Shown here piece after piece: positions 10,910-14,117 of a DNA stretch of 21,528 nt (the first letter of the stretch is position 1; each line of letters opens with the position of its first letter). The translations under genes were made by a program, and so were the position numbers. Below the pieces are notes generated by a model, which was given only the letters and a program-made list of their open reading frames with translations, was not told where the DNA came from and made no database searches. Origin of the DNA: a virus (taxonomy: Duplodnaviria > Heunggongvirae > Uroviricota > Caudoviricetes). The DNA is taken from the IMG/VR virus record IMGVR_UViG_2526164668_000015; one strand, given 5' to 3'.

Positions 10910-11571
10910 ATATCTACGAAAGAATTGATGGCAGCAAATACCGAAATATTTGGGTAGCTGGCGACCTGCACGGATGCTACACGAACCTGATGAACAAACT
11001 GGATACGATTGGATTCGACACCAAAAAAGACCTGCTCATCTCGGTTGGCGATTTGGTTGATCGCGGTACAGAGAACGTCGAATGTCTGGAATTAATCACA
11101 TTCCCCTGGTTCAGAGCTGTGCGTGGAAACCATGAGCAAATGATGATTGATGGCTTATCAGAGCGTGGAAACGTTAATCACTGGCTGCTTAATGGCGGTG
11201 GCTGGTTCTTTAATCTCGATTACGACAAAGAGACTCTGGCTAAAGTTCTTGCCCATAAAGCAGAAGAACTTCCGTTAATCATCGAACTGGTGAGCAAAGA
11301 TAAAAAATATGTCATTTGCCACGCCGATTATCCTTGTGATAAATACGAGTTTGGAAAGCCAGTTGATCATCAGCAGGTAATCTGGAACCGCGAACGAATC
11401 AGCAACTCACAAGACGGGATCGTGAAAGAAATCAAAGGCGCGGACACGTTCATCTTTGGTCATACGCCAGCAGTGAAACCACTCAAATTTGCCAACCAGA
11501 TGTATATCGATACTGGCGCAGTGTTCTGCGGAAACCTCACATTGATTCAGGTACAGGGAGAAGGCGCATGA
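10906..11571 (+). CDS. ninI: NinI, lambda Ser/Thr protein phosphatase (221 aa)
   Basis: [80 protein letters not shown]..., with the GDxHG, GDxxDRG and GNHE metallophosphatase motifs. It follows ninG directly (ATGA), so ninH is absent. Confidence 0.97.
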
Positions 11572-11660
11572 GACTCGAAAGCGTAGCTAAATTTCATTCG
11601 CCAAAAAGCCCGATGATGAGCGACTCACTACTGGCCACAGTTTATTGGTTTTCGTAACTG
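11568..11660 (+). pseudogene. Q: truncated Q antiterminator remnant (first 20 codons of lambda Q, then divergent, stop after 31 aa)
   Basis: [20 protein letters not shown] matches the lambda Q N-terminus and starts with ATGA on the ninI stop. It then reads LLATVIGFRN-stop, and the rest of Q, including its zinc finger, is missing. Confidence 0.8.
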
Positions 11661-11698
11661 AGTCATTTTATTATTTTATTGCAACTTTTAATCTTTTA

Positions 11699-11750
11699 TA
11701 GTGCGAAATAAATGGAGCTGGCATTCATTTCGCACTTTATGTTTTTGTTG
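11699..11750 (+). terminator. putative intrinsic terminator after the Q stub
   Basis: Perfect 10-bp inverted repeat AGTGCGAAAT ... ATTTCGCACT (loop 18 nt) followed by ttatgtttttgtt on the plus strand. Confidence 0.45.
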
Positions 11751-11782
11751 GACTTATGTTATTTTGATTGAATTCAATTCAG

Positions 11783-12742
11783 TTAAAAAAAGAAGGTGAT
11801 TGCTCCATTTATAAATGAATAGTCATCCCCTGTCTTGAATTCTGATGTTACTTTATTAAATGCTAGTGTGAAGGCTACAGGTGCATACCCAATTGTTGCG
11901 CCAACTTGATATTCATCAACAGTTTTGTTTAGCGATACTGTTGTTTGTTTCGTCTGTATTGTTTTTCCTTCGAGAGTATAGTTGCGATTGACATCTCGTC
12001 TTTCCATACCTGCAAAAATCTTGTATTTGAATCCGCTTGTATCGGACATATGCATTAAACCACGGGGAGCCAGCAGACCAAAGCCATTATCCGAATTGAA
12101 GGTTTTATCATTACCAATGGCAATGGTTGCGCCATATGCTACATATTGAAATAAGTTTCCAGTAACAGCAGAAACTTCAGGGTATAATCCAACATTAGCA
12201 CCTAAAATATCCATACTTGGTGTCATGGATAGCATCCCTTTTACAGTATAACCGTAGCGATTCTCTATTTGATCATCCCATGCATGATATTTTTCTGCCC
12301 CAATAATCTCATGAGCTTTATTTTGTACTTTCTGACCGCCTGCGTCGGGGCCAACAACACCTATGTCAGTACCTAATCGATAGCGAATCCAGTCATTCGC
12401 AAGGGAGTTCCATTCAATACCAGTGTGAGTGTATGCACTAAAAGCTCTGTCTCCAGTTACAGCTGTGTTGTGTCTTTTATTACTGCCTGATGGAGAGTAA
12501 ATATCTTGCGCAATATGGAGAGATAATTGGCTCGAGTCTGAGATATCGTGGCTATATCCCAGAAATAAGCCTTGTGAGTAATCATCTCTGTTTTCATGTT
12601 TATTGCCATAAATATCATTAAGTATTGGTTGAAACTTCCCTGCATCATCATTTGCTAATGATAATGCAAGGCTGTTCGCGATAGCTGAACACGTGGTAAA
12701 TGACAGAGCAATAAAGACGCCAGCGATGACACTTTTTTTCAT
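11783..12742 (-). CDS. lpxR: LpxR-like outer-membrane lipid A 3'-O-deacylase (319-aa precursor)
   Basis: 22-aa signal peptide (MKKSVIAGVFIALSFTTCSAIA), a beta-barrel-like alternating pattern and a C-terminal FFF. The mature positions N9, D10, Q118 and H122 (LALSLANDD...; GGQKVQNKAHEI) match the published LpxR catalytic residues. The precursor length (319 aa) equals that of Salmonella LpxR. GC about 38 percent, inverted relative to the phage genes. Confidence 0.75.
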   Translation of the reverse strand: MKKSVIAGVFIALSFTTCSAIANSLALSLANDDAGKFQPILNDIYGNKHENRDDYSQGLFLGYSHDISDSSQLSLHIAQDIYSPSGSNKRHNTAVTGDRAFSAYTHTGIEWNSLANDWIRYRLGTDIGVVGPDAGGQKVQNKAHEIIGAEKYHAWDDQIENRYGYTVKGMLSMTPSMDILGANVGLYPEVSAVTGNLFQYVAYGATIAIGNDKTFNSDNGFGLLAPRGLMHMSDTSGFKYKIFAGMERRDVNRNYTLEGKTIQTKQTTVSLNKTVDEYQVGATIGYAPVAFTLAFNKVTSEFKTGDDYSFINGAITFFF

Positions 12743-13216
12743 ATGTTATTGTCTTCCTTTTTTTTGAATGGTGCGCGTATTTTACATACATGAGTTTGTA
12801 ATACAAGGTGCGTAATCAATATGATGTTTTATAATTGCGTGAGACAATTGATTTATTCGTTTTTTATTGCGGTTTTTATTATCTTTTAATGTAACGGTGT
12901 TTTTATTAAGTGTGTTTGCGTGGTGTTTTATGTTTTTTATAATTTTTATTTTATTAAATTTAAATGCATTAGTAATGGCTATTCTATATAGCAATATAAG
13001 AACTGTTACAAAAAAAGGGGGGCAATTACAGGTAGTTATGGATGATGAGTGAAACAGATATTGGAGAACCGGGGAATGAATGATGTCTGAGTCTTATATA
13101 TCAGAACTCCTTCGCTGTCGCTGGGGGCTCCTGTGCTTATGTCGTTTCCCCGATTCGGTTTTGAACGATTACCGAATGTTGAAGAATTATGCCAAAATAT
13201 AGAAAGGATTTACTGC

Positions 13217-13906
13217 ATGAATACCCAATATTTACAGTATGTTCGTGAGCAACTTATGGCAGCTACTGCTGACTTGAACGGAGCAACGAAAGGCCAGCTC
13301 GAAGCCTGGCAGGAGCATGCACAATTTGATACTGGTACATACAAACGAAAGAAGCTGCGCATTCTGGATGTGGTAACTGGCAAGATGATTACGCTGGATA
13401 ATACGCCGACTTCCGGTAAGCAGTCGTACGCAAAAGGTTCATCCATTGCTTTGGTCAGCCCGGTTGAATTCTCAACCTCTTCATGGCGCCGCGCGGTTTT
13501 GTCTCTCGATGAACATCAGAAAGCATGGTTGCTTTGGTGTTACAGCGAAAGCGTTCGATGGGGGCATCAGGTCACCATAACGCAATGGGCATGGAGCGAG
13601 TTTAAAGATTTGTTAAGTAACAGAAAAATTGCAGGTAAGACACTGGATCGCCTGAAGACGTTAATCTGGCTGGCTGCACAGGATGTGAAGAGCGAACTTG
13701 CAGGGCGTGAGGCCTATGAATACCAGACACTGGCATCATTGGTGGGAGTGACAACAAAAAACTGGTCCGAGACATTTACTGAACGCTGGGTTGCAATGAA
13801 GCACATTTTTCTACAGCTTGATAGTGATGCTTTATTGCTTGTGACGAGAACACGTTCAAAACAAAAGGCAGCATTTTTACAGCAAAATATTGCAAAACTG
13901 GATTAA
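13217..13906 (+). CDS. putative late-gene antiterminator Q of the large (Q82-like) type, 229 aa
   Basis: Located where Q lies (after the nin region), immediately followed by a pR'-like promoter and a strong tR'-like terminator. It lacks the lambda Q Cys4 finger. Its size is about that of the large Q82-type family (my recollection, about 230 aa). Start chosen at ATG 13217 (SD aagga); the track ORF starts at 13133. Confidence 0.5.
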   Translation: MNTQYLQYVREQLMAATADLNGATKGQLEAWQEHAQFDTGTYKRKKLRILDVVTGKMITLDNTPTSGKQSYAKGSSIALVSPVEFSTSSWRRAVLSLDEHQKAWLLWCYSESVRWGHQVTITQWAWSEFKDLLSNRKIAGKTLDRLKTLIWLAAQDVKSELAGREAYEYQTLASLVGVTTKNWSETFTERWVAMKHIFLQLDSDALLLVTRTRSKQKAAFLQQNIAKLD

Positions 13907-13918
13907 AAGCCATATACT
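13890..13918 (+). promoter_or_regulatory. pR'-like late promoter
   Basis: TTGCAA (13890-13895), 17-bp spacer, TATACT (13913-13918), overlapping the 3' end of the Q-like gene. The predicted start near 13926 gives a short terminated RNA of about 55 nt (6S-like). Confidence 0.45.
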
Positions 13919-13951
13919 TCATGCAAATTTGGTATGTTGTAAAAAATGTAT

Positions 13952-13980
13952 AAACCCGCTGCCGAGTGGGTTTTTTTTAT
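13952..13980 (+). terminator. tR'-like intrinsic terminator
   Basis: Stem AAACCCGC / GTGGGTTT (8 bp, one G-U), loop tgccga, then T8. Confidence 0.7.
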
Positions 13981-14117
13981 GCCCTGAGTTGTACTTGTAC
14001 GGTAAACATGCTGGCTGCTATGTAATAGAGTTTTTTTAGCCTGTAACCTCTTGACGGCATTGAATTGCTTTTGTTATGAGTTGTAAGCCAATGTTATCAT
14101 CTTGTATTGGGGTGGTT

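Follow-up and report, generated by a model that had tools for sequence, protein, structure and literature searches.

In phage lambda and in HK-type phages, the nin region leads directly into an intact gene for the late-gene antiterminator Q. The genome of coliphage 434 (GenBank accession number OL657226) has been published (Feiss et al. 2022; PMC9119081), and its annotation of the corresponding region covers a lambda Q 'antiterminator-like protein … N-terminal fragment', LpxR ('outer membrane beta-barrel lipid A deacylase LpxR'), a YlcG-like protein, a Q protein ('transcriptional activator/anti-terminator, Q82-like') and a terminator. The nin-Q junction was examined here in a stretch of 21,528 nucleotides (nt) (the window), the IMG/VR virus record IMGVR_UViG_2526164668_000015 (Caudoviricetes). 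Positions 11568-13988 of the window had been read in a preliminary description, which also proposed alignment of the 319-amino acid (aa) protein with Salmonella LpxR and a profile search with the 229-aa protein, as a truncated lambda Q gene followed by an inverted lpxR-like gene and a different Q module. The stretch is the late-control region of coliphage 434, previously sequenced and annotated, and nothing found here is new, the arrangement being known already from the phage 434 annotation, from the RefSeq annotation of hundreds of Escherichia coli genomes and from experiments on the lpxR gene of enterohaemorrhagic E. coli (EHEC). The anatomy and its reading had been given correctly in the preliminary description, which did not recognise that this region of phage 434 had already been published with an equivalent annotation.

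The lpxR gene of EHEC encodes a 3'-O-deacylase that modifies lipid A and attenuates innate responses, according to accounts of the work of Ogawa et al. 2018 in PMC6393859, PMC7649339 and PMC9263587, and such accounts also state that it needs both Ler and Pch (PMC6393859, PMC9263587). The gene has been associated with the enterocyte effacement locus (LEE) (PMC6724679). The Q module is known best from phage 82, where the late promoter pR' carries a sigma70-dependent pause at +25 and a Q-binding element, and where Q, with NusA, makes RNA polymerase resistant to the terminator (PMC4914094).

Positions 1-15069 of the window were found to be collinear with positions 28093-43148 of the phage 434 genome at 99.4% identity, and the 2.7-kb region that includes the junction shares 99.6% identity with phage 434. 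Both carry the lambda Q fragment, lpxR, ylcG, the Q82-like Q gene and the terminator, with genes for a membrane protein and TciB downstream (99.4-99.7% identity). The window copy differs in being cut by IS1 at 15069 and, across 11400-15069, at 12 positions in pairwise comparison with phage 434, which are accounted for by one copy of an 8-bp repeat, two single nucleotide polymorphisms (one of which gives P47L in Q) and two 1-bp indels. Only 5 positions differ from the prophage in O157:H7 isolate 493/89 over the same interval. The region is thus very probably the natural nin-Q junction of a 434-type prophage, consisting of a lambda Q stub, an lpxR moron and a phage 82-type Q module (Table 1). 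Two features of the window, a suspicious join between prophage and plasmid sequence at the IS1 end (15069/15070) and two private homopolymer indels, might suggest that the truncated Q gene and the mosaic are artefacts of assembly or chimera formation. However, virion-derived 434 DNA, 620 complete genomes and 53 IMG/VR contigs all have the same Q'-lpxR-ylcG-Q82 junctions, base for base, and for 11568-13988 these independent copies refute an artefact, the probability of which is negligible.

The precursor encoded by the minus-strand gene has 319 aa, of which the first 22 form a signal peptide that ends in AIA, and the product was assigned as a 12-stranded outer-membrane beta-barrel. The Pfam LpxR family (PF09982) was matched with 137 bits (cut-off 26) over residues 10-318, and comparison with the crystallised chain of LpxR from Salmonella Typhimurium (PDB 3FID) gave E = 3.6e-153, with 220 of 296 mature residues identical (74%) and one gap of a single residue. 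The Salmonella Typhimurium enzyme was reportedly described by Reynolds in 2006, and its gene, STM1328, is chromosomal and is not known to adjoin a phage Q gene. For the alignment, the list of active-site residues was taken from PMC6260217, in which N9, T34 and H122 are key catalytic residues and D10, D11, K67 and R68 bind the cation or 3-deoxy-D-manno-oct-2-ulosonic acid (Kdo), and from the preliminary description. Residues N9, D10, D11, K67, R68, Q118, H122, E128 and Y130 are all conserved relative to 3FID (numbering offset 22). The family match and the alignment confirm that the gene, which had been likened to lpxR on its length, signal peptide and N9, D10, Q118 and H122, belongs to this family, and the catalytic residues align with those of the Salmonella enzyme. 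Two features read directly from the sequence are in keeping with export to a barrel fold, a hydrophobic leader of 22 residues directly before the start of the mature chain and a C-terminal Phe (…ITFFF). The protein is 100% identical to that of phage 434 and to that of EHEC O157:H7 strain 493/89. When genome contigs were searched with LpxR, the single match was a Citrobacter locus encoding a protein with 73% identity, with which the flanking sequence is not shared, and no donor of the cassette emerged from these contigs.

The 229-aa product encoded beyond lpxR matches a single Pfam family, PF06323, with 307 bits, rather than PF03589 (lambda Q) or PF06530 (Q21). It also matches PHROG 304 ('anti-termination protein Q-like') and is 88% identical to phage 82 Q (GenBank accession number X92588) in a gapless alignment of 229/229 residues. 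The earlier assignment of this protein as a Q82-type Q is upheld by the profile search. No Q82-type chain in PDB was matched by sequence, and a match to ClbS in that search was at chance level (E = 0.42) and was rejected. The NCBIfam collection returned no model matching LpxR or the 229-aa Q. As in phage 82, ylcG (orf45) lies ahead of Q, the -35 element TTGCAA is inside the end of Q, a terminator follows closely, and the early transcribed region contains a -10-like element at a position consistent with the known +25 pause. The X92588 sequence ends at the Q stop codon, and comparison of pR' and the terminator with phage 82 itself is limited to that point.

The promoter behind Q consists of TTGCAA at 13890-13895, a 17-bp spacer and the -10 element TATACT at 13913-13918, with transcription predicted to start at ~13925. 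A consensus scan alone gave 7 promoter-like sites against 7.9 expected from shuffling, which is not significant. However, a block reading TTGCAAAA-T-GATT-AAA--CATATA-TT-ATG-AAAT-TG-TAT is conserved behind Q, in an equivalent position, in four further phages of the Q82 family, from E. coli, Enterobacter and Klebsiella, indicating that the promoter is more than a chance occurrence. The -35 element and the first bases of the spacer are also identical in X92588. Conservation extends to ~13939, about +15, beyond which the four phages carry hairpin and T-run terminators that are unrelated to one another. A -10-like TATGTT at 13933-13938 would occupy +9 to +14 if transcription starts at ~13925, and this is presumed to be the sigma70-dependent pause element by analogy with the +25 pause of 82 pR'; a Q-binding element is likewise presumed to lie within the conserved block. 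The TTGCAA-17-TATACT promoter had been noted previously as belonging to Q; it is present, but as the late promoter at which Q exerts its action, and it does not serve to express Q. The strong terminator noted downstream was borne out by a hairpin and T-run, and a terminated pR'-tR' RNA of ~55 nt is predicted. An Rfam scan of the whole window (E up to 1) gave no match within 11568-13988, and no known small RNA (sRNA) family, STnc100 included, was found over the pR' leader.

The minus strand at 13882-13895 reads TTGCAATATTTTGC, a sequence that fits TTGYN6TTGY, the consensus for CII binding, and shares bases with the pR' -35 element. The counterpart of this segment is marked in the 434 record as a putative paQ/CII site.

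Table 1. Features of the nin-Q junction in the window, with the basis of each assignment
Feature	Coordinates	Strand	Basis or remarks
ninG	10295-10909		Open reading frame (ORF) map
ninI (Nin221), serine/threonine phosphatase	10906..11571	+	ORF; NCBIfam phosphatase matches; annotated in phage 434 and in the O157 prophage
Lambda Q 5' remnant	11568..11657	+	Alignment to J02459, translation; 'N-terminal fragment' in phage 434, pseudogene in RefSeq
ATTTTATT tandem duplication	11665..11680	.	Pairwise differences; two copies in window and O157, one in phage 434
Hairpin past lpxR stop codon	11701-11737, T-run to ~11750 (feature 11701..11750)	.	Folding
lpxR, lipid A 3'-O-deacylase (Ca2+-dependent, predicted)	11783..12742	-	PF09982, 3FID
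Divergent control region upstream of lpxR	12743..13005	.	28% G+C; presumed lpxR promoter site
Decayed rusA-like 3' end	13006..13079	+	Alignment to X92588, translations; left edge of 82-type module
ylcG-like ORF, 40 aa (orf45 of phage 82)	13080..13202	+	NCBIfam NF033498, 48 bits
Q82-type late-gene antiterminator, 229 aa	13217..13906	+	PF06323, PHROG 304, 82 Q
Late promoter pR' and initial transcribed region	13890..13939	+	Scan; conservation in four other Q82-family phages
Intrinsic terminator tR'	13952..13981	+	9-bp G+C-rich stem, 4-nt loop, T8 run; folding, scan; annotated in phage 434

To the left of lpxR, ninI is the last intact lambda-type nin gene, and its end overlaps the start codon of the Q stub by 4 bases. 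The nin region had been described as running normally into Q. This holds for ninG and ninI, which are of lambda type, but lambda ninH is missing, as it is in phage 434, and the region is of 434 type and not strictly that of lambda. The stub is an ORF of 29 codons, in which residues 1-20 are identical to residues 1-20 of lambda Q before the sequences diverge. At the DNA level, identity with lambda (J02459) is complete to 11628, nearly complete to ~11640, and absent beyond. Translation and alignment therefore agree with the divergence after the first 20 codons of lambda Q that had been reported. The remnant is, from its sequence, a recombination scar for which no function is expected.

At the right junction, homology to phage 82 begins within the last ~20 codons of rusA and continues through orf45/ylcG into Q. 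The rusA remnant ends …KKGG…SETDIGEPGNE* where phage 82 RusA has …TKGGRLELTITEMGNE*. Compared with phage 82, nothing but this decayed 3' end is left of rusA, and the lpxR cassette and the lambda Q scar stand in its place. The Q module had been recognised on this side before, but the rusA 3' end and ylcG went unmentioned.

Base composition confirms that the block following the Q stub is AT-rich. The phage backbone has a G+C content of 47%, against 28% in both spacers and 39% in lpxR, and the foreign cassette proper was found to span ~11640-13005. The lpxR gene lies on the opposite strand between conserved phage genes, is foreign in composition, is followed by a 3' hairpin and is not present at this position in lambda or in close relatives, and its designation as a moron fits these features. 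In this it resembles the lambda morons bor and lom, which are likewise compositionally foreign, independently transcribed outer-membrane or virulence genes between conserved modules. Unlike bor and lom, it is placed between nin and Q, outside the late operon, and runs antisense to the delayed-early transcript.

Folding of the stable hairpin at 11701-11737 gave, for the minus strand, -20.3 kcal/mol (z = -4.6) and, for the plus strand, -16.4 kcal/mol (z = -3.1). The lpxR mRNA probably has this structure at its 3' end, and as homology to a plasmid-borne lpxR allele (~80% nt identity) begins at 11698, the hairpin belongs to the lpxR cassette. The same hairpin looks like an intrinsic terminator for rightward transcription from pR, and N-modified polymerase would need to read through it to reach Q. 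On the other side of lpxR, the AT-richness of 12743-13005 and the literature on Ler and Pch make this segment a likely target of H-NS that would be relieved by these regulators.

Taken together, these features would be explained if recombination had cut an ancestral lambda-type Q gene after ~23 codons and, in the same event, imported a 1.4-kb AT-rich foreign cassette carrying the opposite-strand lpxR gene together with a 3' hairpin and an upstream control region that belong to it. The right part of a phage 82-like module (rusA 3' end, ylcG, Q82-type Q, pR' and tR') would also have been imported. Q would then be made from the N-antiterminated pR transcript, which would have to pass the terminator-like hairpin on the plus strand and run for 1.4 kb along lpxR in the antisense direction. 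The late switch would follow that of phage 82, with Q binding a DNA site at pR' and loading onto polymerase that waits near the promoter at the sigma70-dependent pause, and the Q-modified polymerase, with NusA, would continue past tR' into the genes for lysis and structural proteins. In the lysogen, lpxR would be expressed independently and its product exported to the outer membrane, where it would remove the 3'-acyloxyacyl group and leave lipid A under-acylated and less stimulatory to innate immunity. Where the host is LEE-positive, Ler and Pch may switch lpxR on with the virulence regulon. The role in lipid A remodelling and immune evasion that had been proposed for the gene matches, by analogy, what is reported for EHEC lpxR.

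Several observations weigh against this interpretation. No lpxR promoter was located in 12743-13005, where the scan gave weak promoter-like matches, and the T-run of the hairpin at 11701-11737 is present only on the plus strand, so that the lpxR strand has no U-run after the gene. The pause element and Q-binding site were assigned from conservation and position and not from a direct phage 82 match. Position 34 of LpxR is Ser where the Salmonella enzyme has T34, though the change is conservative and retains the hydroxyl, and the concern is offset by the identical protein of O157:H7 493/89, which comes from a serotype with reported activity. In the window copy, the change P47L might impair Q, as the residue is invariant in 52 other copies and in 82 Q, and the cut by IS1 at 15069 leaves no late genes in the window on which Q could act.

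It is possible, though unlikely, that lpxR is a silent and functionally neutral passenger here, its product latent in the membrane or the gene silenced by H-NS, at least where the LEE regulators are lacking. The 28% G+C content of its upstream region is typical of H-NS-silenced DNA, no strong lpxR promoter emerged from the scan, and expression in EHEC is stated to depend on Ler and Pch in the account given in PMC6393859. Such a passenger is difficult to reconcile with an intact ORF encoding a protein that is unchanged in phage 434 and O157:H7 493/89, with a DNA block of at least 99% identity in ~620 genomes, with the retention of all catalytic residues, with the co-occurrence of lpxR and LEE (PMC6724679), and with the activity and immune phenotype ascribed to the EHEC gene in the accounts in PMC6393859 and PMC7649339.

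A search of 5,426 complete E. coli genomes found the lpxR block in 622, with at least 99% identity in 620. The median number of places per genome was one, and 620 genomes have the whole 2.7-kb arrangement with at least 80% coverage. Among the matches listed, the hosts are largely O157:H7, O55:H7, O103, O111, O121 and O145, mostly EHEC or enteropathogenic E. coli (EPEC) serotypes, together with other strains, and this is consistent with the reported LEE association (PMC6724679). In phage records the gene is rare, with LpxR encoded in only two of 50,697, both of them phage 434 isolates.

The lambda Q scar is kept in all 53 of the close IMG/VR copies, ~24 of which have no lambda ninI upstream; in one of these copies (L021, positions 3400-4300) the upstream order is rusA-ninH-Q'. 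The presence of the scar in all copies despite differing upstream genes shows that it is a fixed part of a unit moving among lambdoid backbones. On the right, ylcG is a crossover hot spot for the exchange of Q modules. In phage 434B, everything after codons 34-39 of ylcG is replaced by the DLP12 Q region, with the crossover annotated inside ylcG, and in two IMG/VR contigs (L040, positions 1500-2200, and L043) ylcG is followed by a Q of the PF06530 (Q21/933W) type instead of Q82. As in the window, Q modules have been exchanged in 434B through recombination within short stretches of conserved sequence.

A second lpxR allele (71-72% aa and ~80% nt identity) was found in IMG/VR contigs L065 and L066 (positions 835-1794), where it adjoins tail-fibre and tail-fibre-assembly genes and IS3, and on conjugative and mobilizable E. 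coli plasmids (matches H167-H180). The presence of this allele in other mobile contexts shows that mobile elements have acquired lpxR on more than one occasion.

As lpxR is transcribed head-on to the pR transcript and shares the AT-rich divergent spacer, probably under H-NS and Ler control, with ylcG-Q, activation of lpxR with the virulence regulon could conceivably modulate the dosage of Q through transcriptional collision, antisense RNA or the relief of silencing for rightward transcription. Separately, the ~55-nt pR'-tR' RNA could act as an sRNA. StxS is a regulatory sRNA in Shiga toxin (Stx) phages and would be the analogue. These ideas are speculative and very unlikely to be correct, but if the coupling of lpxR and Q were real, late-gene expression or the timing of lysis in the prophage would be altered.

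The window copy has several peculiarities of its own. The P47L change in Q (T at 13356) is private to it, Pro being found in all 52 of the other copies checked, including those in phage 434 and the O157 prophage, and in 82 Q. Past tR', the gene for a 247-aa membrane protein (14090-14834) is frameshifted by two 1-bp homopolymer indels, +1 in a T-run (14280) and -1 in an A-run (14570), neither of which is present in any other copy. These three changes could be either sequencing errors or signs of prophage decay. IS1A starts at 15070 and removes the last 3 codons of tciB, and from 15070 to 21528 the sequence matches, at 100% identity, E. coli plasmids (NZ_CP010241, NZ_CP010120 and NZ_AP042702) that carry F4/K88-like fimbrial genes and ISEc16. 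The join at 15069/15070 was found in no complete E. coli genome of the collection, and it stems either from genuine cointegrate formation by IS1 in a prophage undergoing decay or from chimeric assembly with homopolymer errors.

The private P47L change, the two frameshifts in the downstream membrane-protein gene and the removal by IS1 of everything past tciB raise the question of whether the 229-aa protein is a working late antiterminator at all, or a decayed or re-purposed regulator, owing to inactivation by P47L or to the defective state of the prophage. This is distinctly unlikely, given a full-length ORF that matches PF06323 at 307 bits, intact cis elements, and the situation in viable phage 434, which has no Q other than this gene in its P47 form.

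The Hfq-dependent sRNA PasD has reportedly been linked to Q and LpxR and is reported to be encoded directly upstream of a sialate esterase gene (Pearl Mizrahi 2021; Zhu, Shabalina and Storz 2026 preprint). In phage 2B8 it lies between tciB and the esterase gene, and the equivalent place in the window is to the right of 15069. The corresponding segments are 7672-7969 of L001 in phage 434 and 5530-5829 of L004 in phage 2B8. As its place is occupied by IS1, PasD was ruled out as part of the feature, and from position it is probably missing from the window.

Two further Rfam matches in the window lie outside the region considered here. One, at 3011-3069 on the minus strand, is a full-length lambda cIII thermoregulator (88.5 bits, E = 1e-20), as expected for an early-left region of the lambda/434 type, and the other is a sub-threshold match to ALIL.

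The earlier observation is thus closed as correct but already known, and the additions made here are minor, namely the constant association of the lambda Q scar with lpxR, the crossover hot spot in ylcG and the private changes of the window copy, which sits in a degraded or possibly mis-joined context. The reading of the locus as the nin-Q junction of a 434-type prophage places lpxR beside the late-gene switch, in the most recombinogenic part of lambdoid genomes. A temperate phage would in this way carry an enzyme that under-acylates lipid A and may blunt innate immune recognition, and the gene is enriched in LEE-positive pathogens.

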